Below, in pieces: positions 8,648-53,506 of a stretch of 64,000 nt of DNA; positions within the stretch are counted from its first letter, which is position 1; every line of letters begins with the position of its first letter. This DNA comes from an uncultured Gemmatimonadaceae bacterium (GTDB lineage: Bacteria > Gemmatimonadota > Gemmatimonadetes > Longimicrobiales > RSA9). The notes beneath the pieces were generated by a model, which saw only the letters and a program-made list of their open reading frames with translations, was not told the origin of the DNA and searched no databases. A program made the translations under genes and the position numbers. The stretch lies in assembly GCA_964416095.1 (NCBI GenBank), contig CAYQCY010000003.1, positions 27,877 through 91,876 of the forward strand, written 5' to 3'.

Positions 8648-8741
8648 GATTATTGATACACCGGTACCGGTCGACGTGCTCCATGTAGAGCGCCCACACC
8701 TTCTCTGACGGAATCCCGGCCCCGAAAGTTGCAGGGTGACT

Positions 8742-8802
8742 GCAGGCGGGAGGCGGAAGGTGGGAGGTGGGAGGCGGAAGGAACGGCGATACGGCGAGGG
8801 GA
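8742..8802 (+). repeat. 61-bp direct repeat R1: (GGRAGGN)5 heptads followed by ACGGCGATACGGCGAGGGGA
   Basis: 57/61 identical to 10771-10831. Ends 14 nt before the ABC-F stop codon. Confidence 0.9.
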
Positions 8803-8816
8803 ACTGGGAGGCCGGG

Positions 8817-10763
8817 TCAGAGGGGGTCGGCGAGGGCTTGTTCGACGCGTTCCCATTCTTCCATGAGGCGGGCGACCTCGGCCTCCTTGCGAGCGCGCTC
8901 CTCGTCCAACTTCGCGACCTGGTCGGGCGCGGCCCGCTGGTAGTAGCCGGGCCGGGAGAAGGTCCGGTCGATCTCGGCGAGCCGGGCCTCGGCGGCCTGG
9001 ATGCGGGCCATGAGCTCTTCGGCCCGGTCCCGGAGCCGTTGGCGCCGCGTCTCCGCGTCGGTGGTCGCGGGCCGGGCCGGGCCATCGTCGTCCCGTCTCC
9101 CTTTTCTGCGGGCCGTCTTCTCGCGCCGCTTCTCCCGCTGCGCCGCCACGACCCGGTCCACATCGAGGTGGTCGTCGCCGCAGGCGTGGATGTACTCGTC
9201 GTAGCTGCCGGGGAAATCGGTGATGCCGGTGGGGGCGATCTCCACGACCCGGGTGGCGAGCTCGCCGACGAACCAGCGGTCGTGTGAGACGAAGACGAGG
9301 GTGCCGTCGTAGGCCCTGAGCCCGTCGACGAGGGCCTCGATGGACTCCAGGTCCAGGTGGTTGGTGGGCTCGTCCAGGACCAGGACGTTGGGCTGCCGGA
9401 GGATGAGGCTGCCGAAGACCAGCCGCGTCGCTTCGCCGCCGGACAGGGTGGCGAGGGGTTTGGCGGCGTCGTCGTCATCGAAGAGCATGAGGCCCATGTG
9501 GGCCCGGACGAAGCGGCGGTCCCGGCCGGGGCAGAAATCCCGGATCCACTCTTCGGCCGACTGATCCGAGGTGGCGAGCCGCTCGTGGTGGTCCTGGACG
9601 AAGTATCCCGGGTGGGTCTCGTGGCCCCATGTCACCTGGCCGGCGTCGGGCTCCAGCTCACCCATGACGATCTCCAGGAGCGTGGACTTGCCGATCCCGT
9701 TGGGCCCGATGATGGCCAGCCGATCCCCGCGCCGGACCCGGAGGTCGACGCCGTGGAGGACCTCGTTGCCGTCGAAGGCCTTCCTCACGCCTTCGAGGGT
9801 GAGCACCTGCTTGCCGCTGGCCCGGCGCTGCTCGAACCGGAAGGTCGGGTAGCGGCGGGAGCTACCGGGCAGCTCCATTAGCTCCTCCGCCTTCTTCTCG
9901 ATGAGGCGGAGCTTGCTCTGGGCCTGGCGCGCCTTCGTGGCCTTGGCCCGGAACCGGTCCACGAACTGCCGGTGGTGGGCGATCTCCTTCTCCCGCTGGG
10001 CGATCTCCTTCTCCCGCCGCTCCCGCTCCGCGCGCTTCGCCTCCTGGAAGTCCGTGTAGTTGCCGTGGTAGAGCAGGACGGTCTCGTAGTCCACGTCCAG
10101 GATCCTGGTGGCCACGTTGTCCAGGAACCGGTGGTCGTGGGAGATGACCACGGCCGGCCCCGCGAAGTCCTGCAGGAAGGTCTCCAGCCAGCGGATGGAC
10201 AGGATGTCCAGGTGGTTGGTGGGCTCGTCCAGGAGCAGGACGTCGGGCGCGCCGGCCAGCACCTGGGCGAGCAGCACCCGCAGGCGGAATCCGCCGGAGA
10301 GGGTGGACAGGCGATCGTGGTGCACCTCTCCCGGTATGCCGAGTCCCTCCAGGATGCGGGCCGCCCGGGCTTCGGCGGCGTAGCCGTCGTGGCGCTGCAC
10401 CGTCTCCTCCAGCTCGGAGAAGCGGTGGGCGTCGAACGCCTCTTCCGGACCGGCCAGCATGGCTTCCTTCGCCTGCATGGCGTCCCACAGGACGGGGTCG
10501 CCCATGAGCGCCACGCCCAGGATCTCCCGGTCCTCGTACAGGAACTGCTCCTGGCGCAGCACGCCGAGGCTCGCCGAGCCCGGGATGGAGACGGTGCCCT
10601 CGGTGGGTGGCAGGTCGCCGGCCAGAATGTTGAGCAGCGTCGTCTTCCCCGAGCCGTTGGCCCCCACCAGCCCGTAGCGCTCCCCGGGGTTGAGCTGGAA
10701 GGAGACGTCGGCGAACAGGGTCCGGTCGCCGTACTGCATCCCCACCTCGGAAACCGAGATCAT
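8817..10763 (-). CDS. ABC-F family ATPase (two ABC domains, coiled-coil C-terminal extension)
   Basis: Two Walker A sites (GANGSGKTT, GPNGIGKST) and two signatures (LSGGFR, LSGGE). No TM domain. The inter-domain linker and Arg/Glu-rich tail are typical of ABC-F translation factors. Confidence 0.9.
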   Translation of the reverse strand: MISVSEVGMQYGDRTLFADVSFQLNPGERYGLVGANGSGKTTLLNILAGDLPPTEGTVSIPGSASLGVLRQEQFLYEDREILGVALMGDPVLWDAMQAKEAMLAGPEEAFDAHRFSELEETVQRHDGYAAEARAARILEGLGIPGEVHHDRLSTLSGGFRLRVLLAQVLAGAPDVLLLDEPTNHLDILSIRWLETFLQDFAGPAVVISHDHRFLDNVATRILDVDYETVLLYHGNYTDFQEAKRAERERREKEIAQREKEIAHHRQFVDRFRAKATKARQAQSKLRLIEKKAEELMELPGSSRRYPTFRFEQRRASGKQVLTLEGVRKAFDGNEVLHGVDLRVRRGDRLAIIGPNGIGKSTLLEIVMGELEPDAGQVTWGHETHPGYFVQDHHERLATSDQSAEEWIRDFCPGRDRRFVRAHMGLMLFDDDDAAKPLATLSGGEATRLVFGSLILRQPNVLVLDEPTNHLDLESIEALVDGLRAYDGTLVFVSHDRWFVGELATRVVEIAPTGITDFPGSYDEYIHACGDDHLDVDRVVAAQREKRREKTARRKGRRDDDGPARPATTDAETRRQRLRDRAEELMARIQAAEARLAEIDRTFSRPGYYQRAAPDQVAKLDEERARKEAEVARLMEEWERVEQALADPL

Positions 10764-10770
10764 TTGAACG

Positions 10771-10831
10771 GCAGGCGGGAGGCGGAAGGCGGGAGGCGGG
10801 AGGCGAAAGGTACGGCGATACGGCGAGGGGA
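10771..10831 (+). repeat. 61-bp direct repeat R2 (partner of R1)
   Basis: Starts 8 nt beyond the ABC-F start codon. Differs from R1 at 4 positions. Confidence 0.9.
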
Positions 10832-11747: not shown

Positions 11748-12364
11748 CCGGATCGCACCTCCTCCCGGTTCGCCACCCGGGCGCCGTCCCGGGCCCGCGC
11801 CGTGTCCTGGTGCGCCGTCATGGCGAGGGCCGGCCGGGTGAGATCGGCTTCGGGCAGCGGGTAGGCCTCCGGCAGAGGCCCGTGGCGTGCCTCCAGCTCG
11901 TCCCGATCGCCGAAGTCCAGGACGCGCATCGGGCAGGCGGCGACGCAGGCCGGCGCTTCGCCCCGGTCCAGGTCGTCGACGCAGAACGTGCATTTCGTCA
12001 TGCGGCCGGCCGCGGCGTCGTACTGGAGGGCGCCGTAGGGGCACGCCCATTCGCAGTACCGGCAGCCCATGCAGCGGTCGGCATCGATGAGCACGACGCC
12101 GTCCTCCCGCTGGGTGATGGCCCGGGTCGGGCAGACCTGCAGGCAGATGGGATGTTCGCAGTGGTTGCACGCCATGGAGACGTGGTAGGCGAAGACGTCG
12201 TGCATCCAGGCGGCGCCGCGATGCTGCCAGCCCCCGCCGGCCACCTCGTAGACGCGGCGCCAGAGCACACCAGCCGGCAGCCCGTTCCGGTCCTTGCACG
12301 CCACCTGGCACGCCTTGCACCCGGAACAGGCCGAAGCGTCGAAGTAGAAGGCGTAGCGCGTCAT
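11744..12364 (-). CDS. dmsB: 4Fe-4S ferredoxin subunit (DmsB family)
   Basis: MTRYAFYFDASACSGCKACQVACKD..., CNHCEHPICLQVCP, CMGCRYCEWACP and CTFC...CVAACP make four Cys clusters. ATGA overlap with the dmsA stop. Confidence 0.9.
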   Translation of the reverse strand: MTRYAFYFDASACSGCKACQVACKDRNGLPAGVLWRRVYEVAGGGWQHRGAAWMHDVFAYHVSMACNHCEHPICLQVCPTRAITQREDGVVLIDADRCMGCRYCEWACPYGALQYDAAAGRMTKCTFCVDDLDRGEAPACVAACPMRVLDFGDRDELEARHGPLPEAYPLPEADLTRPALAMTAHQDTARARDGARVANREEVRSG

Positions 12365-14694
12365 GCCGGCTCCACCTGGACCATCATGGTGTGCTGGGCG
12401 GTCCCCTTGGCCAGCGGCGTCCAGCGCTCCGACGTGAGGACGTTCACCGAGCCGGCCTCGTCCTCGCCGCCCTCGCCGGGCGTCCACCAGGCGCCCTGGG
12501 GGATGTCCACCACGCCCGGCATGATCCGGTTCGTGACCCGGCACGGCAGCACGGTGGCGCCTCGATGATTGAAGACCCGGACCCGGTCTCCGTCCCGGAT
12601 GGCCCGCTCCCGCGCGTCCAGCTCGTTGATGAAGAGGCGCTGCGGGAAGGCCTCGGCCAGCCAGTCGTTGTTGGCGTGGGTCGAGTGGACCCGGGCCATG
12701 GTGTGGTGGCCCATGGCCTGGAGCGGGTGCGACGCCGCCTCCGGCCCGAAGGGGCTCTCCCACTCCGGGACGTACTTCGGCACGGCCGGGACCTCGTCGG
12801 GCCTGCCCATGTCGTGGAGCTGCTTCGAGAAGATCTCGATCCTGCCAGACGACGTCGGCAGCGGATGCGCCTCCGGGTCCGCCCGGAAGTCGGCGAAGGC
12901 CACCGCCGGCTCCGTCACGGGCCGGGACCAGACGCCGGCGTTGCCGGCCTCGAGCTCGTCCAGCGACGGGATGTCGGGGAACCGCCGCTCGCGGTAGCGC
13001 TCCACGGCCCACGCGATCCAGCCACGCTCGTCCCGTCCCTCGGTGTAGGCTTCGCCGATGCCGAGCCGCTCCGCCACCTCGGCGCAGATGCGGTAGTCGC
13101 TCTTCGTCTCGGCCAGCGGCTCCACCAGCGGCGGCATGAGGATGACCTCGTCGCCGTACTTCCAGCCGTCCTCGAGGCCCCAGGTCTCGAACTGGGTGCA
13201 CGCCGGCAGCACCAGGTCGGCGAAGCGGCCGGTGGGCGTCAGGAAGTTGTCCTGCACCGCGATGAACTCCACCAGCTCCTCGTTCGCCAGGATCCGGGCC
13301 GTGCGGTCGATGTGGGCGTGCTGGTTCAGCAAGGCGTTGCTGGCCACCGCCCAGATCAGCTTGATCTCCGCGTCCAGCCGACGGTCGGGGTCGACATTGC
13401 CGCCGCGGTCCTCGCGCACCGTCCGGCCTTCCGGCACCGCCTCGTCGAAGAGTACGCCGTCCTCGGCGCCCAGCTCCCTGCCCCGCAGCACCGCTTCGGT
13501 CCACAGGAACACCGGGATGCTGGCGCCCACGGGGTTCCGGCCCACGGGGAAGACGTTCCAGAGGGGCCCGCCGTCCGGCGCCTGGAGGGCGAGCCCGCTC
13601 GCCCAGCCACCCGCCACGCCGACGTTGCCCGTGATGGCGGCGAGGACGCACCCGGCCCGCACGACCTGCTCGCCGTAGGCCCGGCGCTGCATCCCGTAGC
13701 CCTGGTAGAGGACGCCGGGCTTCGTGGTGGCGTACTCCCGGGCGATGCGGGCGATGGTCTCCCGGGGCACGCCGGTGATGGCCTCGGCCCATTCCGGCGT
13801 CTTGGGGACCCCGTCGCGCAGCCCGAGGATGTAGTCGCTGTAGCTCTCGGCCTCGGCGCAGCCGGCGGGCATCTGCGAGTCGTCGAACCCCACGCAGTGG
13901 GTGCGGATGAAGGCGTCGTCGTGGAGGTCCTCGGTGAGCATGACGTGGGCCATGGCGCTCATCATGGCCACGTCCGTGCCCGGCCGGATGGGCACCCACT
14001 CGTCCGCCAGCGCCGCGGCGCTCATGGTCATGCGCGGGTCCACGCACACCACACGGGCGCCCTGCTCCCGGGCCAGCTTGACCAGGTAGTCGCTGTTGGT
14101 GCCGTCCCGCATCTCCGCCGGGTTCCAGCCCCACATGAGGATGTACCTGGCGTTCAGCCAGTCCTGCCGCTGGTTCCCGGTCTGGAGCGTGCCGTATACG
14201 GTAGGCGTGGCTACGTTCGTGGCGCCCCACGAGTAGCTGTTCCAGATGCCCAGGCAGCCGCCGTACAGGTTCAGCAGACGACGCGCCGTCTGCGACCCGT
14301 TCGTCTGGTTGTAGCTACCCGTCCCGTAGGGCACGAACAGGGCGCCGTTGCCGTACGTCTCCCGCACCCGCCGGATCTCGCCGGCCAGCAGGTCCAGCGC
14401 CTCGTCCCACGAGATCCGCTCGAACCGGCCCTCACCGCGCGCCGCCACCCGGCGTAGCGGATGCGTCAGCCGGTCCGGGTGGTACTGGCGGCGCAGATAC
14501 GCGCGACCCCGGGCACACGCCCGGAGCTGCGGGTCCGACACCCGGTCCGGGCGGTCGTCCGTCTCCAGCCGCGTGATGATGCCGTCCTCCACGTGGGCGA
14601 TGAGCAGGCACCGCCCGCCGCAGTTGTGCGCCGGACACCCCACCCGCACCCTGCGCGTAGCCGGCCCGATAGAATTCGCCGGAATCGTGCTCAC
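12361..14694 (-). CDS. dmsA: molybdopterin oxidoreductase catalytic subunit (DMSO reductase family, DmsA-like), no Tat signal
   Basis: 777 aa. The FS0 cluster motif CPAHNCGGRC begins at residue 19. GTG start. An in-frame TGA 8 codons upstream rules out a longer N-terminus. Confidence 0.88.
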   Translation of the reverse strand: MSTIPANSIGPATRRVRVGCPAHNCGGRCLLIAHVEDGIITRLETDDRPDRVSDPQLRACARGRAYLRRQYHPDRLTHPLRRVAARGEGRFERISWDEALDLLAGEIRRVRETYGNGALFVPYGTGSYNQTNGSQTARRLLNLYGGCLGIWNSYSWGATNVATPTVYGTLQTGNQRQDWLNARYILMWGWNPAEMRDGTNSDYLVKLAREQGARVVCVDPRMTMSAAALADEWVPIRPGTDVAMMSAMAHVMLTEDLHDDAFIRTHCVGFDDSQMPAGCAEAESYSDYILGLRDGVPKTPEWAEAITGVPRETIARIAREYATTKPGVLYQGYGMQRRAYGEQVVRAGCVLAAITGNVGVAGGWASGLALQAPDGGPLWNVFPVGRNPVGASIPVFLWTEAVLRGRELGAEDGVLFDEAVPEGRTVREDRGGNVDPDRRLDAEIKLIWAVASNALLNQHAHIDRTARILANEELVEFIAVQDNFLTPTGRFADLVLPACTQFETWGLEDGWKYGDEVILMPPLVEPLAETKSDYRICAEVAERLGIGEAYTEGRDERGWIAWAVERYRERRFPDIPSLDELEAGNAGVWSRPVTEPAVAFADFRADPEAHPLPTSSGRIEIFSKQLHDMGRPDEVPAVPKYVPEWESPFGPEAASHPLQAMGHHTMARVHSTHANNDWLAEAFPQRLFINELDARERAIRDGDRVRVFNHRGATVLPCRVTNRIMPGVVDIPQGAWWTPGEGGEDEAGSVNVLTSERWTPLAKGTAQHTMMVQVEPA

Positions 14695-14855
14695 GCGAGC
14701 CTTCCGCCTTTCGCCTCACGCATGTCGTCCCGCATGAAGTTCCGGGCCTGGTAGTTCCGCACCCCGACCCACGCCGTCTCGCCGTCCTTCTCCAGGTCGT
14801 CGATGGAGTAGACGTAGGGCTCGGACTTCATGAGCCAGTAGTTCCGGTCCGCCAA
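14691..14855 (-). pseudogene. EVE-domain gene stump (54 codons; a full domain is about 140-150 aa)
   Basis: Hand translation: GGAGG, 5 nt, then TTG start, giving MADRNYWLMKSEPYVYSIDDLEKDGETAWVGVRNYQARNFMRDDM. It then diverges (REAKGGRLA) and stops in a GTGA overlap with the dmsA start. The N-terminus matches the canonical EVE start YWLMKSEP...W.GVRNYQARNF. Confidence 0.7.
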
Positions 14856-14889
14856 GGCTGCCTCCGTTCACGCCGGTTCGGTCCCGGTG

Positions 14890-14918
14890 ATTCTGCCGGA
14901 ACGGGGCCGTGCTGACAA
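14890..14918 (-). promoter_or_regulatory. candidate promoter for the EVE-stump/dmsABC operon (TTGTCA-17-CAGAAT)
   Basis: The hexamers read on the minus strand at 14918-14913 and 14895-14890. They align with the candidate metH promoter in repeat copy C. Confidence 0.3.
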
Positions 14919-14930
14919 CCGGGAGCGCCC

Positions 14931-15229
14931 GTGGACCTTCCTCATTCTGTTCGGTTGCTCGCATGCAAATCGGTAATTCGGGCCGCCGTCGGGCTCCCGC
15001 TGGCAGCGCTGCGAGGATGGTCCATCGCCGGGCCCTGCGGCAGAGCCACCTTCGCGGTCGGGAAAACGCGGGAACACGGTAGGAGGCGGCTGCGCGGAGG
15101 CCGTCGTCGTGAACGGTTGCGCTTCACGCCGCCGTCCGACAGGAGGCCTCGAGGGTCGGGCTGCGGCGCGTACGTAACGGCAGGCGCGAGCGTCCCGCGT
15201 CTCCGCGCAACGATTCGGCGCTTCCGCGT
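14931..15229 (+). repeat. intergenic repeat family, copy A (core 15018-15229)
   Basis: The core is about 87% identical by hand count to the reverse complement of 26766-26977. The left part (14931-15017) is about 75% similar to 53116-53202. Confidence 0.9.
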
Positions 15230-15287
15230 TGAGATGCGTTTGCACCTTGCCCGCAGCCCGCCTAGGATCCGCCCGCCCCGGACGGGC

Positions 15288-16679
15288 TCAGCCTGCGGCG
15301 CTGCCGCCGTGGCGTCGTCTCACCCACAGGAACACGGGCACACCCAGGGCGATGACGCCGAGGCCGGCCAGGGACGGTCCTGGCGCACGAAGCACGGCCT
15401 GCACGACCATGGTGGCGGCGGCGGCCACGAACAGGGCGGGGACCAGGGGATAGCCCCAGACGCGGAACGGCCGGTGCGCCTCGGGCCGCGTCCGGCGCAG
15501 CACGAAGAGTGTGGCCACGCCGAGCCCGGCGAAGAGCACCACGGCGAAGCCTGTATAGGTGAGCAGCGCCTCGAAGCCACCGGTGAGAACGAGCACGCCG
15601 CTCCACGCCGCCTGGGCCCAGATGCTGAAGCGGGGCACGCCGCCCGGCGGTACGCGTGCGAAGGCGGGCGGCAGGCAGCGGTCCTGGCCCATGGCGTAGT
15701 AGACCCGCGGCCCGGTGAGGACCATGGCGCTCACGCTGCTCGCCAACACGAGCAGGATGAGCGGCGTGAAGAGGCGGACGCCGGCGGCGCCCCAGAGCAC
15801 GCGTGCCACCCGGTCGCCGGTGGCCTCGGCGTCGGCGATCCCGTCGACGCCCAGCACGTGGACGTAGAGCAGGTTCAGCGCCACGTAGAGCGCGATGACG
15901 ACGACGGTCCCGCCCAGTAGCGATCGAGGCAGGGTCCGGCCCGGGTCCCGGACCTCCTCCGCCACGTACGCCGCCGCGTTCCAGCCGCTGTAGGTGAACA
16001 TGACGAGCACCAGGGCGACCAGCGCGCCGCCGAGGTCCGGTACGGACGCGGCCGATGGGGCCGGCGTCGCCGGCGCCGTGCCCGGGTCCGCCAGGAAGCC
16101 CAGCACGATCAGCAACAGGATCGTGCCGATGTTGAGCCAGGCGAGCGCCTGCTGGGCCACGCGCCCGGGACGGAGGCCCCGGTCGTGGACCAGGGAGAAG
16201 ACGACGATGAGGCCGAGGGCCACCAGCGTCCTGGGCGACACGGAGACGGCGAGCTCTCCCGTGAGCGGGAGCCGGAGCAGGGCCTCCGTGGAGCCGGCCC
16301 CGGGCACCAGCCGGTCCAGGTAGATGGCGAAGCCCACGGCGGCGGCCGCGATGGCGCCGGAGAACCCCGCCACCAGCGATGTCCACCCGCTCAGGAACCC
16401 GGCCAGCGGGCCGAAGGCCTCGCGGATGTAGACGTACTCGCCGCCCGCCCGGGGCCGCATGGCGGCCAGCTCGGCGTACGCGAGAGCACCGATGAGGGAG
16501 AGTGCGCCGCCCACCAGCCAGAGGCCGAGGAACGATGCGGTGGAGCCGGCCCGCTGCGCCACGAAGGCCGGTGTGAGGAAGATGCCCGTGCCGATGACGT
16601 TGGTGACGACGACCGCCGCTCCGTCCAGCAACCCGAGCCGCCGTTCCAGCGCCGGCCCCGGCTCCGGTCCTATCGGCAC
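15288..16679 (-). CDS. APC-family amino-acid permease
   Basis: 463 aa with about 12 TM segments. N-terminal motif VVVTNVIGTGIFLTPAFVA and EYVYIREAFGPLAGFLSGW. Confidence 0.88.
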   Translation of the reverse strand: MPIGPEPGPALERRLGLLDGAAVVVTNVIGTGIFLTPAFVAQRAGSTASFLGLWLVGGALSLIGALAYAELAAMRPRAGGEYVYIREAFGPLAGFLSGWTSLVAGFSGAIAAAAVGFAIYLDRLVPGAGSTEALLRLPLTGELAVSVSPRTLVALGLIVVFSLVHDRGLRPGRVAQQALAWLNIGTILLLIVLGFLADPGTAPATPAPSAASVPDLGGALVALVLVMFTYSGWNAAAYVAEEVRDPGRTLPRSLLGGTVVVIALYVALNLLYVHVLGVDGIADAEATGDRVARVLWGAAGVRLFTPLILLVLASSVSAMVLTGPRVYYAMGQDRCLPPAFARVPPGGVPRFSIWAQAAWSGVLVLTGGFEALLTYTGFAVVLFAGLGVATLFVLRRTRPEAHRPFRVWGYPLVPALFVAAAATMVVQAVLRAPGPSLAGLGVIALGVPVFLWVRRRHGGSAAG

Positions 16680-16707
16680 CTGGAACGATCCTCCGGCGAC
16701 GGGCCCG

Positions 16708-17499
16708 TCATGACGCGGTGTCGGGCGGCTCGGCCACCATGGGCACGAAGCGGACCGGCATGGCGGCCACCTCCCGGAGGCCCTCCGGCGTCTTGCGTAG
16801 CACCCGGAGCGTCTGGACCATCCGGCCCACCGGCACCACCATGGTCCCGCCGATGGCGAGCTGCTCTGCCAGCGCCGGCGGCACCCGCTCCGGCGCCGCC
16901 GTCACCACGATGGCGTCGAACGGGGCGTGCTCCGGCCAGCCCAACCACCCGTTGCCCGCCCGCACGTGCACGTTGTCGTAGCCGAGCTCGCTCAGGATGC
17001 CATGGGCCCGCTCCGCCAGCTCGGGCACGATCTCGATGGTGTACACCTCGTCGGCCAGCCCGGCCAGCACGGCGGCGTCGTAGCCCGACCCGGTGCCGAT
17101 CTCCAGCACCCGGTCGTCCGGCTCGATGGCCGCGGCCTCCGCCATGAACGCCACGATGAACGGCTGGGAGATGGTCTGGTCGTAGCCGATGGGCAGCGGA
17201 TGATCCCGGTACGCCAGCGAGGGCGGCGCGCCGGGCACGAACCGGTGCCGCGGCACCTCCCGCATCACCCGGAGCACCGCCGTGTCCGTGATCCCCCGGG
17301 CCTCGATCTGGCGCCGGACCATGGTGTGCCGCAGCTCCGTCAGCGCCGCCGTGTCCTGGGCCTCGGCCGTCGCCGCATCGCCCGGTCGGGATTCCGGCCC
17401 CGCGCACGCGAGCGCCGCGAGCAGAAGCAGGATCGGCGCTATCATGGACTGGAAGACAGGCATCGGTGGCACTCCGCGTTGAATGGAGTTATCCGTCAT
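16708..17499 (-). CDS. pcm: protein-L-isoaspartate O-methyltransferase with N-terminal signal peptide
   Basis: TISQPFIVAFM and LEIGTGSGYDAAVLA (SAM motif I). N-terminus MPVFQSMIAPILLLLAALACAG is signal or lipoprotein-like. The start may instead be ATG 17463. Confidence 0.88.
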   Translation of the reverse strand: MTDNSIQRGVPPMPVFQSMIAPILLLLAALACAGPESRPGDAATAEAQDTAALTELRHTMVRRQIEARGITDTAVLRVMREVPRHRFVPGAPPSLAYRDHPLPIGYDQTISQPFIVAFMAEAAAIEPDDRVLEIGTGSGYDAAVLAGLADEVYTIEIVPELAERAHGILSELGYDNVHVRAGNGWLGWPEHAPFDAIVVTAAPERVPPALAEQLAIGGTMVVPVGRMVQTLRVLRKTPEGLREVAAMPVRFVPMVAEPPDTAS

Positions 17500-17589
17500 G
17501 TCCCGGCGCGACGTTGTTCAGACCATGCAACAAATATACACGGCCGGCCGCACGGACCACCGGGATCGGTGCGGCTCGCGCTTGACGCC

Positions 17590-18894
17590 ATGCCACTCCG
17601 GTCGCTCCTCATCACGGCCCTCCTCCTGGTTTCCGGCTGCCACGACGCGCCGGACGCGGGCACGACCGTGGTGACCTTCTCCGGTAGCGCCGTGGGGGCG
17701 GAGGCGGAGGTTCTCCGCCGTCAGCTCGATACCTTCATGGTGGAGAACCCGGACATCCAGGTCGAGGTCCGGTCCACGCCCGACGCGGCGGACCAGCGCC
17801 ATCAGCTCTACGTGCAGTGGCTCAACGCACGCACGCCGGACCCGGACATCCTGCAGCTCGACGTGATCTGGACCGCGGAGTTCGCCGCCGCGGGTTGGAT
17901 CCTGCCCCTGGACCGGTTCCGACCGCCGGTCGATGCGTTCTTCCCCGCCGCCATCCGGGCCAGCACCTGGCGCGACACCCTGTACGCCCTCCCCTGGTTC
18001 GTGGACGTGGGCATGCTCTACTGGCGGACCGACCTGCTGGAGGACGCGCCTCCGACGTACGCCGATCTTCTGGCGGAAGCCCGCCGGGCGATCGGCCCGG
18101 ACGTGCCGTACGGGTTCGTGTGGCAGGGCGCCCGCTACGAGGGCCTCGTCGTCGTCTTCCTGGAGCACCTGCACGCCTTCGGCGGCCGGGTCCTGGACGA
18201 GGCGGGCCATGTCGCGCTGGACTCGGACGCGGCGCTGCAAGCGCTCCGGTACATGCGCGACGCCGTCCACCGGCACGGCGTCGTGCCCGAGGCGACGCTG
18301 ACCTGGCGCGAGGAGCAGACCCGGTTCGCGTTCCAGAACGGCCGCGCCGTGCTCATGCGCAACTGGCCGTACGCCGTCCCGCTCCTGGAGGACACGGCCG
18401 CCTCCCGGGTCGCCGGCCGGTTCCAGGTGGCGCCGCTGCCCGCGGGGCCGGGCGGCCGGAGCGCCTCGGTGCTCGGCGGCGCGCAACTCGCCATCAACGC
18501 CCACAGCGGCGAAGCGGAGGCGGCGTGGCGGGTGGTCGAGTTCCTGACACGCGCCGACGCCGTGATCGAGCGCGCCCGGGGCGTGGGCCAGTACCCGGCC
18601 CGCCGTGACGTGTACGGCCGGCGGGAGCTGGCCGCGGCGCTGTCGGTGGACCCGGCCCGGGCGCGACGCATCATCGAGCACGCGGTGCCCCGGCCCGTCA
18701 CGCCGGTCTATCCGCAGGTCTCGTCCATCCTCCAGGTCTGGCTGCACCGGGCCCTGACCGGCCAGCGGGACCCGGCGACGGCGCTGGCGCGGGCCGCCGA
18801 CGAGATCCGGTCCCTCCTGGAGCGGGTCGAGCTGGCGCCGGAGCCGTCTTCCGCGGCGCGGCCCGCGGGTGCCGCGGAGTCGTCCCGTGGCTGA
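17590..18894 (+). CDS. carbohydrate ABC transporter substrate-binding lipoprotein
   Basis: Internal ATG of track ORF 16927..18894. MPLRSLLITALLLVSGCHD is a lipobox. The protein looks like a family-1 SBP (QLDVIWTAEFAAAGW). Confidence 0.85.
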   Translation: MPLRSLLITALLLVSGCHDAPDAGTTVVTFSGSAVGAEAEVLRRQLDTFMVENPDIQVEVRSTPDAADQRHQLYVQWLNARTPDPDILQLDVIWTAEFAAAGWILPLDRFRPPVDAFFPAAIRASTWRDTLYALPWFVDVGMLYWRTDLLEDAPPTYADLLAEARRAIGPDVPYGFVWQGARYEGLVVVFLEHLHAFGGRVLDEAGHVALDSDAALQALRYMRDAVHRHGVVPEATLTWREEQTRFAFQNGRAVLMRNWPYAVPLLEDTAASRVAGRFQVAPLPAGPGGRSASVLGGAQLAINAHSGEAEAAWRVVEFLTRADAVIERARGVGQYPARRDVYGRRELAAALSVDPARARRIIEHAVPRPVTPVYPQVSSILQVWLHRALTGQRDPATALARAADEIRSLLERVELAPEPSSAARPAGAAESSRG

Positions 18895-20682: not shown

Positions 20683-21804
20683 GTGGCCACGCTGAGGTTC
20701 GAGGAGGTGGACAAGGTCTTCGACGGCGATGCCGCCCTCGAGGACATCAGCCTCGAGGTCCGGGACGGCGAGTTCATGGTCCTGGTGGGGCCGTCCGGCT
20801 CCGGCAAGAGCACCCTGCTCCGGGTCATGGCGGGGCTCGCGACGCCCACCGCGGGCCGCGTCTACATCGACGACGACGACGTCACCGACGCCGAGCCCCG
20901 GGAGCGGGACCTGGCCATGGTCTTCCAGGCGTACGCCCTCTATCCCCACAAGACGGTGCGCGGCAACCTGGAGTTCGCGCTGCGCATGCGGGGCATCGAC
21001 GGGGCCGAGCGCGGCGAGCGGGTCGAGGCGGTGGCGGACACGCTGGGCATCGCCGAGCTGCTCGAACGCAAGCCCGGCCAGCTCTCCGGCGGCCAGCGCC
21101 AGCGCGTCGCCCTGGGCCGGGCCCTCGTCCGGGAGCCACGGGCGTTCCTCCTGGACGAGCCCCTCTCCAACCTGGACCCGGCGCTCCGCCTCCACGCCCG
21201 GGCCGAGCTGGCACGCATCCACCGGCACCTGGACGCGACCTTCCTGTACGTGACCCACGACCAGGAAGAGGCCATGACCCTCGGAGACCGGGTCGCCGTC
21301 CTCCGGGACGGCCGCCTGGAGCAGGTCGCGCCGCCCACGGAGCTCTACCGCAGCCCGGCCACCCGCTTCGTCGGCGAGTTCATCGGCTCGCCGGCCATGA
21401 ACACGTACCGCTGCCGGGTCGAGCACGACGACGGGGTCCGCCTCGTCACGCCCCACTTCCGCCTCGATCCCGGCACGGCCGCGCCCGACGCCATCGGCGA
21501 GGAGGTCGTGCTGGGGATCCGGCCCCACGATGTCCGACGCGCCGGGACGGACGACGCCGACCTGGCCGGTCGCGTCGAGATCCTCGAACCCAGAGGCAGC
21601 GACCTCCTGGTCCGGGCGCGCCTGGGCGGAAGCGACCGCGGTGGAGCGAGCGAGCGGGATCCGGACGAACGGGGGCAGGCCGACACCGTCGCCGTCATCC
21701 TGGACCCGGACGCCGATGTCCAGCCGGATGACGAGATCGGCCTTCGCCTGCCCCGGGACAAGCTCCACTTCTTCGACCCGGAGGACGGCCGCCGCCTCCA
21801 CTGA
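20683..21804 (+). CDS. sugar ABC transporter ATP-binding protein (MalK/UgpC-like)
   Basis: Walker A GPSGSGKST, signature LSGGQRQR, Walker B FLLDEP, and a C-terminal regulatory domain. Confidence 0.92.
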   Translation: MATLRFEEVDKVFDGDAALEDISLEVRDGEFMVLVGPSGSGKSTLLRVMAGLATPTAGRVYIDDDDVTDAEPRERDLAMVFQAYALYPHKTVRGNLEFALRMRGIDGAERGERVEAVADTLGIAELLERKPGQLSGGQRQRVALGRALVREPRAFLLDEPLSNLDPALRLHARAELARIHRHLDATFLYVTHDQEEAMTLGDRVAVLRDGRLEQVAPPTELYRSPATRFVGEFIGSPAMNTYRCRVEHDDGVRLVTPHFRLDPGTAAPDAIGEEVVLGIRPHDVRRAGTDDADLAGRVEILEPRGSDLLVRARLGGSDRGGASERDPDERGQADTVAVILDPDADVQPDDEIGLRLPRDKLHFFDPEDGRRLH

Positions 21805-21813
21805 CCTCGGGTG

Positions 21814-22473
21814 TCAACCCTTCCGGTACAGGGCGTTCACGCTGACCCGGCGCCCCGGATCCAGCTCCACCCGCACGGTCTCGCTCGGGACCTCCGGCTC
21901 CAGCCCGCGCGCCTCCCACGCCGCGTCCAGCACATCCGCGTCCAGCAGCACCGTGCGACCGGCCGGGAAGCCGTCGTAGACGTCGGGCTCCCCGGGCACC
22001 GGCGTCACGCCCTCCCCGGTCAGGTCCACTTCGGGCGTGAACTGGTTGAAGAGGAGCAGCCCGCCGGGCTTGAGGACCCGCGCCGTCTCGTCCGCGGCCC
22101 GTTCCCACTCCCGGCGGCTCGTCGCGCTGTGGTGCACGCCGAGGGCGACGACGAGGTCGAAGGACGCGTCGTCGTACGTCGCCAGGCCATCCATGCGGGC
22201 GACGCGCACGCGGTTCCGCGCCGCTTCCTCCCCCAGCACCGTCGAGACTCGCTCCCGCGTTCGCTCGACCATGGCCTCCGACGCGTCCACCGCGTGGACG
22301 TCGAAGCCGTGCCGGGCGAGGAACTCCGTGTTCCGACCACCCGCACAGCCCAGGTCCAGCACCCGCGCCTCCGGCGGCCGGTCGTAGCGCTCGACCAGCT
22401 CGGCCAGGCGGTGGTCCGGGTCCCGGTCCGCGAACTTCTCCACCCTCGCCGGGTCCTCCCAGTACTCGTTCAT
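21814..22473 (-). CDS. class I SAM-dependent methyltransferase
   Basis: VLDLGCAGGRNTEFLARHGFDVHAVDAS is motif I. Start moved to MNEYWED (ATG 22473). Confidence 0.8.
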   Translation of the reverse strand: MNEYWEDPARVEKFADRDPDHRLAELVERYDRPPEARVLDLGCAGGRNTEFLARHGFDVHAVDASEAMVERTRERVSTVLGEEAARNRVRVARMDGLATYDDASFDLVVALGVHHSATSRREWERAADETARVLKPGGLLLFNQFTPEVDLTGEGVTPVPGEPDVYDGFPAGRTVLLDADVLDAAWEARGLEPEVPSETVRVELDPGRRVSVNALYRKG

Positions 22474-22678
22474 GCCCGGCAATGTGGGCGGCGGCACCCG
22501 GAAGGACCAGCGGACCGTCCAAGCGTCGGCCCGATGGAACGTCGTACACCCGTGCAAGGGTGTACCATCGTGGGTTGCACGACGGTGCCCGGGACGTTAG
22601 CTCCCGCCTCGTGGCTCGGTCCGATCGGCCGCAGCGTTACAGGGGCATCCACGCAGCGAGCGGGACCGGAGGATACGG

Positions 22679-23680
22679 ATGGACTTCGCGATGTGGGGTC
22701 AGGCCCTGCGGGTGATCCCGCGGGTGGACAAGGAGCGGTGGGACCGGCTGGACGTCGTCGCCCGCTGGCTCATCGCCAGCCGGTCCGCCGTCTTCGTCAT
22801 CACCGCCATCTCCGTGGGCATCGCGGGGCTCCTCGCCCTGCGGGAAGGCGTGTTCGACCTCGGGCTCTTCCTGCTCGTCGCCGTCGGGCTCATCATGGCC
22901 CACGCCACGAACAACATCGTCAACGACATGACGGACTACTGGAAGGGCGTGGACCGGGGCAACTACTTCCGGGCCCAGTACGGGCCACAGCCCCTGGAGC
23001 ACGGGCTCATGAGCGTGCGCCAGACCGCGCTCTACGCCGCCGTCACCGGGCTCGTGGCGCTGGCCGCCGGCATCGCGCTGGTCTACCTGCGGGGCGGCCT
23101 GACCCTGCCGCTCCTGGCCGCCGGCGTCTTCTTCGTCCTCTTCTACACCTGGCCGCTCAAGTACATCGGCCTCGGCGAGCTGGCCGTGCTCCTGGTCTGG
23201 GGGCCCCTCATGATCGGCGGCGGCTACTACGTCATCGCCGGCGTCTGGAGCTGGCCCGTCGTCCTGGCCGGCATGCCCTACGCCCTGGGCGCCACCACCG
23301 TCATCTTCGGCAAGCACATCGACAAGCGCGACGCCGACCGGGAGAAGGGCATCCGCACCATCCCCGTCCTCATCGGCGACCGCCCGGCCCGCTACCTGGC
23401 CATCGCCCTCTTCGCGCTCCAGTACGTCTTCGTCGGATACCTGGTGGCCACCGGCTTCTTCACCGTCGCGCTGCTCCTCGTGGTGCTCGCGCTGCCGAAG
23501 CTGGCGCAGGTCTCGAAGATCTACCTGCGGCCCCGGCCCGACGGGCCGCCGGCGGACTACCCGGAGAGCGGCTGGCCCCTCTGGTTCGTGAGCTGGGCGT
23601 TCGTCCACAACCGGGCCTTCGGCGGCCTGTTCCTGCTGGGGCTCATCGCGGACGTGGTGCTCCAGCGGTTCGTGGTGTAG
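22679..23680 (+). CDS. UbiA/MenA-family membrane prenyltransferase
   Basis: Polytopic. Asp-rich motif NNIVNDMTDYWKGVD resembles MenA NDYGDxxKGxD. A second motif is KHIDKRDADREKG. Confidence 0.8.
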   Translation: MDFAMWGQALRVIPRVDKERWDRLDVVARWLIASRSAVFVITAISVGIAGLLALREGVFDLGLFLLVAVGLIMAHATNNIVNDMTDYWKGVDRGNYFRAQYGPQPLEHGLMSVRQTALYAAVTGLVALAAGIALVYLRGGLTLPLLAAGVFFVLFYTWPLKYIGLGELAVLLVWGPLMIGGGYYVIAGVWSWPVVLAGMPYALGATTVIFGKHIDKRDADREKGIRTIPVLIGDRPARYLAIALFALQYVFVGYLVATGFFTVALLLVVLALPKLAQVSKIYLRPRPDGPPADYPESGWPLWFVSWAFVHNRAFGGLFLLGLIADVVLQRFVV

Positions 23681-23831
23681 GGGGCGCGGCACCGTCCTCC
23701 GCATCCGGCGGGTGGCCCCCGCCCCACCGACATCCTTCCACCCCACCACGGGGGGCCATACATTGGACCGTCCGGGTGCCGTAGCCGTTTCCGGCGCCCA
23801 CTCCCCGCACGGACCTCCGGAGGCTCCTGCC

Positions 23832-26135: not shown

Positions 26136-26225
26136 CCGGTCTTCTTGCCTCACATACCCGAGACACTATTAGTAACCGGTCCGAGCAATGCGCCTCATGG
26201 AGATCCGGGCGGGTGAGGAGAAGGC

Positions 26226-26582
26226 ATGACGAAGCGGATCGGCATCATCTACTGCGAGCGGATCCAGGACACGAGCTGCGTCGGCTGCGCCAAGTGCTTC
26301 AAAGCGGTCAACGACGGGACCTTCGCCTTCGAAGACATGGACGACGTGCGCGTCGTGTTCAAGACGAGTTGCGGCGACTGTCCCGGGCTCGTCCTGCCGA
26401 AGATGGACCTGCAGATGCTGGTGCTGAACTGTCTCGACGAGGGGCTCGACGCCGTCTACTTCGGGACCTGCGTCCAGAAGGCGACGGCGCTCATGAGCTG
26501 CCCCATGAACCTGGAGGGCATCAGCGCCAAGATCGAAGAGAAGTTCGACGTCCCGGTCCGGGTCGGGACCCACGAGTACTGA
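26226..26582 (+). CDS. CGGC-domain protein
   Basis: 118 aa. IGIIYCERIQDTSCVGCAKCFKA...CGDCPG...GTCV matches the Cys pattern of the CGGC domain. GAGGAG SD upstream. Confidence 0.75.
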   Translation: MTKRIGIIYCERIQDTSCVGCAKCFKAVNDGTFAFEDMDDVRVVFKTSCGDCPGLVLPKMDLQMLVLNCLDEGLDAVYFGTCVQKATALMSCPMNLEGISAKIEEKFDVPVRVGTHEY

Positions 26583-26765
26583 GGGTCACGGGTCACGGCG
26601 CCAACTGAGCTTCAACGCCCTTTCCGCAGATCGTACAGCCGTACGTGCTCCACGTCCATCTCGTCCACCCGGCGATCCCCTCCCGGGACTTTCCCCGGAA
26701 ACGGCTAAGGTTTCTCCGTAACCCGTTGTGGTGCAGAGGTGGCGTCGATTGGGAAGTGGGAATTC

Positions 26766-27050
26766 GACGCGGAAGCGCTGAATCGTTGCGCGGACACGCG
26801 GGACGCTCGCCGGCTGCCCTTACGTACGCGCCGCAGCCCGACCTTCGAGGCCTCCTGTCGGACCGCGACGTGACGCGCAACCGTTCGCGCCGGCGGCTTC
26901 CGCGTAGCCGCCTCCATCGGCGTTCCCCCGTTGTCCCGACCGCGAAGGTCGCCCTGCCGCGGGGCCCGGGGATCGACCGGAACGGAAGTTGCCCTCATCA
27001 ACTATGCCCGACCGATCGAACGATCGGCGCTGCGACCTGATAGTGAGGAG
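26766..27050 (-). repeat. intergenic repeat family, copy B (core 26766-26977, inverted relative to A)
   Basis: See copy A. The 44-nt block at 26819-26862 is the reverse complement of 15134-15177 with one mismatch. Confidence 0.9.
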
Positions 27051-27055
27051 ATGCC

Positions 27056-27634
27056 ATGAGAATGCGCGTTCTCGCACTGCTCGTCACCGGCCTGCTTCCC
27101 CTCGCGGCGTGTGATACCGACGGCGCGGAGGAGATGGAGGAGCTGGAGCCGGCGACCACGATGGAGCCCCCCGCGTTCGAGACCCTCGACCTCGACGGCG
27201 ACTCCTACCTGGACGCCGACGAGCTGGCGGCGTGGGTCGACGACGAGGGCGTCTTCACCCGCTGGGACATCGACGCGGATTCGGAGCTCGACGCCGATGA
27301 GATCAACGAAAGCGTCTACATGATCTGGGACGCGGATGAAGACACGGTCATCGTGGAATCCGAGTGGGAGACCGGCGTGGACCACGTCTACCCGGGCGCC
27401 CTGGACCCGGGCGCGTTCCAGGACTGGGACCTGGACGGCGACTCGGAGCTCGATGCCGACGAGGTGGCCGAAGGACTCGACGCGACGAGCTGGAACGAGT
27501 ACTGGTACGAGGCCGATGCGGTGATCGGCTTCGACGAGTTCATGGACATGTACTTCGCGCTCTGGGACCGCGACGGCGACGGCCGGATCGACGCCGTGGA
27601 GTACGAGACCGGCGCGGAGTACTGGGTGTACTGA
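27056..27634 (+). CDS. acidic EF-hand-like calcium-binding lipoprotein
   Basis: Lipobox LLPLAAC. It carries repeated DxDxDxxxDxxE loops: DLDGDSYLDADE, DIDADSELDADE, DLDGDSELDADE and DRDGDGRIDAVE. Confidence 0.8.
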   Translation: MRMRVLALLVTGLLPLAACDTDGAEEMEELEPATTMEPPAFETLDLDGDSYLDADELAAWVDDEGVFTRWDIDADSELDADEINESVYMIWDADEDTVIVESEWETGVDHVYPGALDPGAFQDWDLDGDSELDADEVAEGLDATSWNEYWYEADAVIGFDEFMDMYFALWDRDGDGRIDAVEYETGAEYWVY

Positions 27635-27699
27635 CGGAGCGGACCCGCGGGGGGACCGGCCTGCGGCCCCACGCCCGAACAAGACATGCCCATGATGAC

Positions 27700-27725
27700 G
27701 AAGGGCCCGCCGCGGCGGGCCCTTC
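27700..27725. terminator. perfect GC palindrome between the convergent EF-hand gene and pilC
   Basis: GAAGGGCCCGCC-GC-GGCGGGCCCTTC, a 12-bp stem. Confidence 0.55.
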
Positions 27726-27753
27726 CCTGTCGCGTGGCGTGGAACGGCTCCCC

Positions 27754-46768: not shown

Positions 46769-48706
46769 TTACGAAACCTTCCCCGGCGGCCTGAACCCGA
46801 CGCGGTCCGCCTCGTCCAGCGCCACCTCCACGACGGCGCCGTCCACACCGTCCACGTCCGCGAAGACCTGGAGCGCGAAGGGCACCTTGCCGAAGGGCGC
46901 GCTGACCTGGATCCCCTGCACATCGGACCGGACCCGCTGGAAGATCTCCCGGGCGATGAGGATGCCCTCCTCCAGGGCATGCTCTTTCCCCCTGTCGTTG
47001 GCCTTGCGCATGCGGGCGAGGATGGGGTCCGGCACGTTGATGCCCGGGACCTCGTTCGCCAGGAACTCGGCGTTGCGGAGGGAGACCAGTGGCCAGATCC
47101 CCGCAATGATCGGCACCCAGATGTCACGCTCTTTCAGCGCCTCGATGACCGCCAGGAGCTGGTCGCTGTCGAAGACCGGCTGCGTGATGGCGTACTCGGC
47201 CCCGGCCTCCGCCTTCCAGTAGAACCGGTGCAGCTCGTGGTCCAGGTCCACGGCGCCCGGGTTCAGCCCGACGCCGATGGTGAACGACGTGGGCTCGCCG
47301 GTGGGGTTGCCGCCCGGGTCGAGGCCGTGGTTCAGCCGGTTCACCAGGTTCGTGAGCCCGATGCTGTCGATGTCGAAGACGGCGGTGGCGTCGGGGTAGG
47401 GCCCCATCTTGGGCGGATCGCCCGTGATCAGGAGGAGGTTGCGCAGCCCGAGAGCGTGTGCGCCCAGGAGGTCCGACAGCATGCCCAGCAGGTTTCGGTC
47501 CCGGCAGGTGTAGTGCACGACGGCCTCGATGCCGACCATCTGCTCCACCAGCGCCGACGTGGCCAGCACGCCCATCCGCATCTGGGCCCGGGGCCCGTCC
47601 GGGACGTTCACCGCGTCCACGCCCGCCTCCTTCAACATGCGGACGCCCGCCAGCATCGACGCGGGATCCACGCCCTTGGGCGGTACGATCTCCACGCTGG
47701 TGACCAGCTCGCCGGCATCCAGCTTCCGCCCGAGCCGCGACCGCTCGGTCAGCGGCACGGGCTCCCGCTCCGCCTCCTCCGACCGCACCGCCTCCACCCG
47801 GATCTTCGTCCGGGTCCGGCCCGGCGAGAGCGCCGCCACCGCGTCGGCCATGCGCCGGATGTGCTCCGGCGTCGTGCCGCAGCAACCACCCACGAACTTG
47901 GCGCCGGCCTTGATCAGCCGCTCGGCGTATTTCGCCATGTACTCCGGCGAGGCCATGTACATCTTCCGCCCGTGCACCTCCCGGGGCAGCCCCGCGTTGG
48001 GCTGGGCCGAGAGCTTCTTCGTCGTGCCCCGGGCCAGGTGCACGAGCGCGTCCAGGATCCCCGCCGGGCCCACGGAGCAGTTCAGCCCCACCACATCCGC
48101 GCCCCACTCGTCCAGCCGGCTGGCGCACAGCTCCGGCGCGCTCCCGTACGCCGTCGTGCCGTCCTCCCGTATGGTCATCTGCGCCACGATGGGCAGGTCG
48201 CTCGCTTCCTGCACCGCCCGGATCGCCTGATGGATCTCCTCCAGGTCCGAGAAGGTCTCCAGCACGAACAGGTCCACGCCGCCGTCCAGCAGGCCTTCGA
48301 CCTGGGTCCGGAAGAACGCCCGCGCCTCCTCGTGCGACGTGGGGCCGTACGGCTCGAGCCGGATCCCCAGCGGCCCCACCGACCCGGCCACCAGCGCCCG
48401 CTCCCCGGCGGCATGCTTCGCGATGAGCGCCGCCTGGGCGTTGATCTGGAAGGTCTCGTCGGACAGGCTGTGCTCGTGCAGCTTGACCGGGTTCGCGCCG
48501 AAGCTGTTCGTCTCGATGATCTCGGCGCCCGCGTTCACGTACGCGCGGTGAATCTGACCCACGAGCTCCGGGTCCTTCAGGTTGATCTCGTCATAGGACC
48601 GGTTGATGAAGACGCCCCGGGCGTAGAGCATCGTCCCCATGCCGCCGTCGAACATGACGGGGCGGTCGGACGTGAGGAGCTCGTGGAAGCGGTCCCTGTT
48701 GCTCAC
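46769..48706 (-). CDS. bifunctional homocysteine S-methyltransferase / methylenetetrahydrofolate reductase (YitJ-like)
   Basis: N-terminal Hcy-binding domain (GGMGTMLY, LNCSVGP, GGCCGTTPEHI) and C-terminal MTHFR-like domain. GTG start inside the stop region of the upstream 4HB gene (GTGA). Confidence 0.85.
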   Translation of the reverse strand: MSNRDRFHELLTSDRPVMFDGGMGTMLYARGVFINRSYDEINLKDPELVGQIHRAYVNAGAEIIETNSFGANPVKLHEHSLSDETFQINAQAALIAKHAAGERALVAGSVGPLGIRLEPYGPTSHEEARAFFRTQVEGLLDGGVDLFVLETFSDLEEIHQAIRAVQEASDLPIVAQMTIREDGTTAYGSAPELCASRLDEWGADVVGLNCSVGPAGILDALVHLARGTTKKLSAQPNAGLPREVHGRKMYMASPEYMAKYAERLIKAGAKFVGGCCGTTPEHIRRMADAVAALSPGRTRTKIRVEAVRSEEAEREPVPLTERSRLGRKLDAGELVTSVEIVPPKGVDPASMLAGVRMLKEAGVDAVNVPDGPRAQMRMGVLATSALVEQMVGIEAVVHYTCRDRNLLGMLSDLLGAHALGLRNLLLITGDPPKMGPYPDATAVFDIDSIGLTNLVNRLNHGLDPGGNPTGEPTSFTIGVGLNPGAVDLDHELHRFYWKAEAGAEYAITQPVFDSDQLLAVIEALKERDIWVPIIAGIWPLVSLRNAEFLANEVPGINVPDPILARMRKANDRGKEHALEEGILIAREIFQRVRSDVQGIQVSAPFGKVPFALQVFADVDGVDGAVVEVALDEADRVGFRPPGKVS

Positions 48707-52867: not shown

Positions 52868-53103
52868 GCCTGCCTTTCGTTTTCGTCCCGACCACGAAAA
52901 AAGCCCCACGCCGATGGTCTCGGTGCGGGGCGATCCCTCCATATTCGCGTTCTGTCGTCCCGGCACTTTAGACCTTTGGTTCGACAGGTCCGGGACGGAA
53001 CGCATCCCTCCCTCCTGTCCGGCGGTGCCAAGCGGCCTCAAATGCATCCGCCGTTGCTGCTCCTCTGTCCGCTCAATGTCATACCCGCCCTCGGCCGCGT
53101 CAA
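52868..53103 (-). promoter_or_regulatory. metH 5' leader: candidate promoter (TTGACG-17-GACATT) plus ~175-nt structured RNA ending in an intrinsic terminator; possible riboswitch or attenuator of unassigned class
   Basis: Candidate -35 at 53103-53098 and -10 at 53080-53075. There are several mutually exclusive helices, for example GUCCCGG pairing either with an upstream GGGA or a downstream CCGGGAC. The terminator lies 30 nt before the ATG. Confidence 0.5.
52897..52931 (-). terminator. intrinsic terminator inside the metH leader
   Basis: Minus-strand GCCCCGCACCG-agaccau-CGGCGUGGGGC followed by UUUUUU. Confidence 0.7.
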
Positions 53104-53202
53104 GACAGGGAAGAGGTGGACCTTCCCCATCCTTTCGATTCCTCGCTGATGCAGGCGGGCAATTCGGGAAGCCGTCGGGCTCCTGCCCGCGGCCCGCCGA
53201 GG
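53098..53202 (+). repeat. intergenic repeat family, partial copy C
   Basis: gtggaccttccccatcctttcgattcctcgctgatgcaggcgggcaattcgggaagccgtcgggctcc... aligns with A 14931-15017. Weaker similarity may continue to about 53260. Confidence 0.7.
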
Positions 53203-53299
53203 CTCCGCTCGTGGGCCTCACCGGGCACGGATTCTGCTACGAAAGCCGGGCGATGGAGCGGTGTCGTTCCGCTCCGCGCCTCGCATCGCGGAGGGACCC

Positions 53300-53506
53300 A
53301 TGACCGCCGGGAAGATGCGCCTCGACGCCCAGCGGGCGCTGCTCGAGCTGGAGCCCGGCCTGGCTCCCTGCGGGCGGTCCCAGGCCGATGGCGTGCCCTG
53401 CCCCGAGCTGGGCACCGACTGCGCCGACTGCCCGGAGGGTCGCGACGGTCTCTTCACGCTCATGCAGGAGAGCTACAAGCTGCGGATCAAGCGGCTCTGC
53501 ATTTGA
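53300..53506 (+). CDS. hypothetical Cys-rich small protein (68 aa)
   Basis: GGAGGG lies 4 nt before ATG 53300. GC3-rich. Contains C-x10-C-x7-C-x2-C. No family recognised. Confidence 0.5.
   Translation: MTAGKMRLDAQRALLELEPGLAPCGRSQADGVPCPELGTDCADCPEGRDGLFTLMQESYKLRIKRLCI

Follow-up and report, generated by a model that had tools for sequence, protein, structure and literature searches.

A segment of about 215 nt that occurs in two gene spacers of the window, by which we mean the complete stretch of 64,000 nt analysed here, is best understood as a lineage-specific, non-coding dispersed DNA repeat of an uncultured, Longimicrobiales-like member of the Gemmatimonadota, a reading to which we assign a probability of roughly 55%. 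According to this reading, the segment, in the following called the core, would have been copied into intergenic spacers, each separating the 3' end of a gene from the promoter region of the following one, and would now be drifting roughly neutrally, being dispensable for the adjacent genes and probably present in more than two copies. As a matter of conjecture, it may have spread via illegitimate or ectopic recombination or by means of a trans-acting function encoded elsewhere; these are the likeliest routes since the hallmarks of MITEs mobilized by a transposase are absent.

The two copies, A and B, form the one outstanding inverted pair among the repeats of the window, which has a GC content of 70%. 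Using BLASTN with copy A against the window, they align over 215 nt with 87.9% identity, 25 mismatches and one gap (E=2.4e-74), which confirms the alignment of about 212 nt and about 87% identity given in a preliminary description of this DNA. Repeat finding dissects the same pair into 15019-15186 versus 26811-26978 (168 nt, 87%) and, after a 1-nt indel, 15186-15232 versus 26764-26810 (47 nt, 94%). This indel at position 15186 is the only one in the core, where two had been counted previously. A 44-nt block highlighted earlier (15134-15177) indeed contains a single mismatch (15153) but is not statistically unusual, as a near-identical stretch of this length arises in 30% of permutations of the 26 differences over the 215 columns (p=0.30). 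An internal inverted repeat, GAATCGTTGCGCG ... CGCGCAACCGTTC, with its halves approximately 81 nt apart, is intact in both A and B. An nhmmer profile of the two copies, run with all filters off, recovers only these two core copies in the 64-kb window. Hence, the three-copy family proposed in the preliminary description, whose coordinates are otherwise largely right, was wrongly grouped: the third member, C, has only the left flank of A (A-left) in common and carries no core, so that A, B and C are not one family. Judged from the alignments, there is a two-copy core and a separate two-copy similarity of 88 nt, the two adjoining at locus A. The positions of all features are compiled in Table 1.

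Table 1 Features at the repeat loci, in window coordinates
Feature	Position	Strand	Remarks
Core repeat, copy A	15018..15234		87.9% identical to B; right limit inferred from the start of Logan contig L001 at 15205
Core repeat, copy B	26764..26978		Inverted relative to A; repeat finding and BLASTN
Full repeated unit at locus B, inferred	26709..26981		273 nt, extends the core by 55 nt towards the CGGC gene; from Logan contig ends
A-left	14931..15016		86 nt adjoining core A; similar to C, not to B; BLASTN 76%, E=1.4e-11
C	53116..53202		Counterpart of A-left; precedes the metH ATG by 250-335 nt; without core
EVE-domain stump, 54 aa	14691..14855	-	Pfam EVE positions 1-42 of 145, E=3.6e-16; first gene downstream of A
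σ70-like hexamers TTGTCA-17-CAGAAT	14918..14890	-	Passes the consensus scan; sole promoter-like site in 14600-15500
Weaker hexamers TTGACG-17-GACATT	53103..53075	-	Read from the sequence; fails the consensus scan
Segment without counterpart in L082	26603..26959		357 nt versus 18 nt in L082; includes almost the whole of core B
Perfect palindrome CCGATCGAACGATCGG	27012..27027		28 nt upstream of the lipoprotein ATG; identical at L082 1518-1533
Implied boundary (contig start 15205)	15234		A/B homology ends at 15232, within 3 nt
Implied boundary (contig start 26952)	26981		A/B homology ends at 26978, within 3 nt
Implied boundary (contig end 26738)	26709		Best excision point versus L082
Implied boundary (contig end 15068)	15039		21 nt inside the homology edge at 15018

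The previous assignment of the repeat as non-coding, with the overlapping open reading frames as mere shadows of it, is well supported. The core displays a GC content of 0.65-0.79 at all three codon positions in all six frames, in contrast to the neighbouring genes with 0.38-0.54 at the second and 0.92-0.95 at the third position. Mismatches between A and B distribute as 11/9/6 over the codon positions, thus without codon periodicity, and none of the open frames over the repeat yields a Pfam match, even at E<=1. A coding or pseudogene origin of the core was rejected on the same grounds of composition and Pfam.

Core A is located between the stop of an APC-family permease gene (15288..16679, -; Pfam) and A-left, with the EVE-domain stump beyond the latter. 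This stump abuts the GTG start of a gene for a DmsA-like molybdoenzyme (12361..14694, -), and DmsC is also encoded there. Core B follows a CGGC-domain gene (26226..26582, +) and precedes the gene of an EF-hand lipoprotein (27056..27634, +), its end being 78 nt upstream of the lipoprotein ATG. Flanking genes are co-directional in both cases, and the core ends face EVE stump/dmsA (TTG 14855, -) and lipoprotein (ATG 27056, +), respectively. The shared orientation reported earlier therefore holds in so far as both core copies turn one and the same end towards a gene start, but at n=2 it is of no statistical weight. Scanning for the σ70 consensus, the promoter types of Gemmatimonadota being uncharacterised, revealed no σ70-like site inside core A or B on either strand and none near B. 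Likewise, no terminator-like site was found at the A or B loci, and no transposase or other mobile-element gene among the 29 window genes scanned with Pfam; a tRNA or tmRNA gene that could have served for integration is lacking in the vicinity. Insertion beside terminator hairpins was considered as well and rejected, the flanking hairpins being no stabler than shuffled sequence.

The A-left/C segment is a different matter from the core, and locus A has both side by side. Recurrence of the left extension of A at C, as described before, was reproduced over 88 aligned nt, in nhmmer with E=1e-6 (for BLASTN see Table 1). A-left is directed towards the EVE stump and C towards metH (ATG 52867, -; start placed from the conserved N-terminus), and relative to two putative promoters the segment spans approximately -48 to -135. 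The hexamers of both loci start 12 nt after a shared GTCCAC. Hence, the preliminary description was right about their aligned positions, but the hexamers lie outside the repeated sequence, those at A in unique sequence between A-left and the start of the EVE stump and outside both repeats, and the pair at C fails the scan. A-left/C is read as an older 88-nt segment shared by the regions that directly precede the putative -35 boxes of two operons, EVE-stump/dmsABC and metH. Shared upstream regulatory DNA is plausible from this position, a second repeat that has decayed would be just as possible, and it is for this segment only that the promoter-upstream idea is possible. RNAalifold on A-left/C was uninformative or null on both strands. 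Segment C also resembles the Rfam M23 RNA (RF03006), a motif known from the 5' UTRs of genes encoding M23 peptidases (PMC5737381): 53131-53199(-) aligns to the full-length model with a well-matched 5' hairpin sequence. The match, however, reaches 23 bits where the gathering score is 41.2 (E=0.043 in a 511-nt search), the homologous A-left gives no match, and C is located upstream of metH instead of an M23 peptidase gene. An assignment of C to this motif was rejected for these reasons.

Attempts to recognize an RNA in the core gave null or uninformative results. With the 4227 models of Rfam 15, the window has no match that reaches a gathering score, and an E-value limit of 10 brings up no relevant match on A or B (E<=10). 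Single-sequence folding of both strands of A and B results in MFE z-scores of 0.19, -0.51, 1.17 and -0.40 relative to dinucleotide shuffles. RNAalifold reports two compensatory pairs per strand for the A/B alignment, as a two-sequence alignment gives by construction; covariation from two sequences has almost no power, and its absence does not exclude an RNA. In a pair-preservation test, the MFE structure of one copy was taken, the substitutions of the other copy were compared with random placement, and broken pairs were counted. The resulting P values of 0.18, 0.59, 0.048 and 0.16 do not survive correction for four tests in any case. A long-range pairing of 26829-26850 with 26940-26961, attractive in B, was discarded as three uncompensated changes break it in A. 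The earlier suggestion of an upstream ncRNA could therefore not be substantiated, given the absent folding signal and the fact that substitutions between A and B spare predicted pairs no more than chance.

A close relative, represented by contig L082 from JGI 3300018080, allows comparison of the B locus with a nearly empty site. Its lipoprotein is 90% identical, and nucleotide identity to the window amounts to 94.7% for the CGGC gene and 92.4% for the lipoprotein gene, whereas the spacer between the two genes measures 137 nt in L082 versus 473 nt in the window. By BLASTN, 1071-1467 of L082 corresponds to 26213-26602 and 1486-2322 to 26960-27804. The proximal 78 nt of the lipoprotein gene are kept in L082, including the SD and the palindrome CCGATCGAACGATCGG, which is probably an operator (putative). 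As L082 lacks the core, yet retains these 78 nt intact, the core is dispensable for the upstream region of that gene. Together with the lack of an internal σ70-like site, this speaks against the core as a promoter-carrying or cis-regulatory module, one of the ideas put forward before. The best alignment to L082 is obtained by excising 26709-26976 from the window. At the same time, a stretch of 106 nt beside the element (26603-26708) is found in the window only and, according to BLAST, homology to L082 extends approximately 18 nt into the core end; hence, an imprecise deletion in L082 and an insertion in the window would be equally parsimonious. Divergence between A and B is 12.1%, compared to 13.4% (17/127) at 4-fold sites between window and L082, and the A-B differences, with a ts/tv of 11/14, are no more unevenly distributed than expected by chance (p=0.30). 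From these values, A and B look as if they had drifted neutrally for about as long as the window and L082 genomes have been separate.

Additional copies are suggested by the way in which an independent assembly of the same organism breaks at the element. The flank contigs (SRR7048218_450963, _95388, _40949 and _80728) stem from the assembly of SRR7048218 by Logan, which builds de Bruijn contigs at k=31 in which each 31-mer occurs once (PMC12424806). Such a contig is expected to enter a repeat by k-1 = 30 nt and then stop. All four flank contigs, covering 13762-15068, 15205-18248, 21084-26738 and 26952-28762 with 0-1 mismatch to the window, stop in or at the element, with the interiors 15069-15204 and 26739-26951 left uncovered; A-left is crossed unbroken by Logan contig L171. 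Three of these contigs reach exactly 30 nt past an inferred element boundary into the element, and for the end of the fourth, at 15068, a variant at the A/B mismatch 15069 fits as well as a repeat edge. Exact identity between A and B never exceeds 24 nt in a row, and each of their 31-mers occurs just once in the window. As A and B thus share no 31-mer, neither copy can cause the contig breaks of the other and further copies would be needed. The simplest explanation would be that such copies, some A-like and some B-like, reside either in this genome or in relatives occurring together with it. Strains with and without the element were dismissed as cause of the breaks since they would stop contigs at the boundary and not 30 nt inside. 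A-B inversion, recombinants or strain SNPs were dismissed as well, because the contig ends miss the mismatch positions except 15069, and 26738 is outside the homology.

Searches for the element beyond this organism remained without success. Exact patterns of 22-27 nt from the 44-nt block gave no match in 185,579 species genomes, JGI metagenomes and IMG/VR. In approximately 170 related loci taken from genomes and metagenomes, nhmmer detected neither core nor A-left nor B-left except for the flank sequence in L082 and the contigs L001 and L166 of the organism itself, and blastn against plasmids and phages gave no match. Shadow ORFs were also used as bait for further copies: the 125-aa ORF on A(-) found no match in 5.8 billion proteins, and the 131-aa ORF on B(+) found two low-identity, multi-stretch matches to long proteins among 1.84 billion representatives, which we take to be compositional. 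The permease places the organism in the Gemmatimonadota, with uncultured Gemmatimonadaceae as best genomes (68-71% aa identity) and Longimicrobiales MAGs as source of the best proteins (72-77%). Loci found via the permease (71-77% aa at most) exhibit no synteny downstream of it and do not contain the element. Conservation of the core is not seen in family- or order-level relatives, which likewise speaks against a cis-regulatory module or upstream ncRNA. In agreement with the preliminary description, which had no RNA or MITE family to match it, the core corresponds to no known RNA, IS or MITE family, with Rfam, plasmid, phage and Pfam searches all negative.

Three rival explanations were ranked behind the dispersed repeat. 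An unlikely one, placed foremost among them, is a one-off ectopic duplication in which a 215-nt spacer segment reached a second, inverted site 11.6 kb away, the contig breaks reflecting strain heterogeneity or low coverage. A single old event would fit an A-B divergence equal to the neutral divergence from the nearest relative, as well as the presence of just two copies in 64 kb and the failure to find TIRs, TSDs or a transposase. In addition, the Logan assembly of the organism is in any case broken up into contigs of 1.3-5.6 kb, and the contig end at 15068 adjoins the A/B mismatch at 15069. Such a duplication does not account, however, for all four flank contigs stopping in or at the element with both interiors uncovered, for three ends situated exactly k-1 nt inside independently inferred boundaries, or for breaks in copies without a common 31-mer, of which the one at 26738 is wholly outside the A/B homology.

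Following in rank, and improbable in our view, is a transcribed RNA on the gene strand, acting either as a cis-acting leader of the downstream gene or as a 3'-UTR or stand-alone sRNA duplicated at the two loci. Both copies are co-directional between same-strand genes and upstream of a gene start, the GC-rich core offers many possible helices, and fewer pairs are broken than expected in one of the four tests (gene strand, P=0.048, uncorrected). Against this, the other three pair-preservation tests are null and the two compensatory pairs per strand are all that is seen, MFE z-scores range from -0.5 to +1.2 on both strands, and neither an Rfam family at E<=10 nor a terminator-like site was found; moreover, the core is missing before the orthologous lipoprotein gene in L082 and from order-level relatives. 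The least probable of the three is a DNA regulatory cassette, in which the core, in the manner of some Correia/ERIC-type repeats, would provide the gene that it faces with a promoter or an array of sites for transcription factors. Here, the identical end facing the gene start in both copies, the internal inverted repeat intact in both, and the neighbouring A-left/C segment, the end of which is followed after 12 nt by -35-like hexamers at either locus, could be taken as indications. Agreement in orientation at n=2 is a coin toss, though, the proximal region of the lipoprotein gene with palindrome and SD is kept in a relative without the core, and a σ70-like site is lacking in the core on either strand, in a scan that is weak given the uncharacterised promoter types of Gemmatimonadota. 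There is, finally, a slim chance that the core belongs to an undescribed Gemmatimonadota family whose members would spread in the absence of inverted termini or target duplications and settle between the 3' end of a gene and the promoter that follows. It might then be a new non-autonomous mobile element or a duplicate of a regulatory or small-RNA gene with a structure not visible from two copies, and A-left/C would be a common upstream control region connecting the dmsABC and metH operons.

Compared with known families of small repeats, the core as a lineage-specific dispersed repeat shows partial likeness to several. MITEs are similar in small size (215-273 nt for core and full unit), non-coding nature, intergenic location and presence/absence between close relatives, and probably also in occurring in several copies, of which two are seen in 64 kb and more are suggested by the k=31 contig ends. 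The core differs from them in that TIRs are found neither at the ends of the 215-nt core nor at those of the 273-nt unit (the best end-spanning pair has 13 nt, 85%, and is off the homology edges), and that no target-site duplication is visible relative to the near-empty L082 site, where 18 nt replace 357 nt. Furthermore, no cognate IS or transposase was seen among the 29 window genes scanned, and the indel versus L082 misses the element ends. REP/BIME, ERIC and BOX elements are likewise dispersed, lineage-restricted, non-coding and intergenic, often located just past 3' ends and with function being optional. These families, however, are imperfect palindromes with strong hairpins in tens to hundreds of copies, whereas the core, with two copies seen, folds no better than shuffled sequence. 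IS200/IS605-derived PATEs share the absence of TIRs and TSDs, but possess stable subterminal hairpins and insert beside a short specific target; stable subterminal hairpins were not detected in the core, where the end hairpins have z-scores around 0 (DNA end folds, z -0.3 to 1.3), and no shared tetra- or pentanucleotide was seen in the flanks. The Correia elements (CREE/NEMIS) of Neisseria are small repeats beside gene starts and come close to the promoter-carrying idea of the preliminary description. In the core, by comparison, we found no TIRs, TA duplication, IHF site or outward promoters such as Correia elements possess. Thus, MITE, REP/ERIC palindrome and IS200/IS605 derivative were all rejected as names for the core, TIRs, TSD, stable hairpins and a transposase not having been found.

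The practical value of these observations is modest. Small lineage-specific repeats of this type break short-read assemblies of uncultured Gemmatimonadota, generate false ORFs and mark rearrangement differences between close strains, such as the truncated EVE gene or the CGGC neighbours in L082. If the extra copies are real and still devoid of inverted termini and target duplications, their mode of spread would be worth a look. This is a new member of a familiar kind of element in a poorly sampled lineage, with no bearing on a long-standing question.

Several further observations concern the surroundings of the repeat loci. The EVE stump has the appearance of a scar left by rearrangement. Permease and dmsABC of a Longimicrobiales relative (L168) are separated by 5.5 kb that hold four other genes, and in another related genome (L169), fragments of an IS3-type transposase (rve_3, HTH_21, HTH_Tnp_1; 11812-13006) are found directly downstream of the orthologous permease, the same position as that of core A in the window. 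Upstream of the CGGC gene, L082 encodes a protein of the ornithine cyclodeaminase family (26-985), compared to an 807-aa TPR protein in the window (23712-26135); this differing neighbour, despite approximately 93% nucleotide identity in the CGGC-lipoprotein pair, suggests that local rearrangement is frequent. Another small intergenic repeat of this genome is a purine-rich direct repeat of 64 nt and 92% identity (8739-8802 and 10768-10831), which contains a 7-nt tandem of the GGGAGGC type and brackets an ABC-F ATPase gene (8817..10763, -), one copy being just past the ABC-F stop and the other between the ABC-F start and the DmsC stop. The spacer upstream of metH comprises approximately 430 nt (52868-53299), with a likely 5' UTR of approximately 200 nt, and Rfam detects no SAM, SAH or cobalamin riboswitch there. 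Divergent from metH, a small Cys-rich ORF (53300-53506, +; 68 aa from ATG) shows a GC3 of 0.91 and no Pfam match. After metH, a fused homocysteine S-methyltransferase/MTHFR gene is encoded at 46769..48706 (-).
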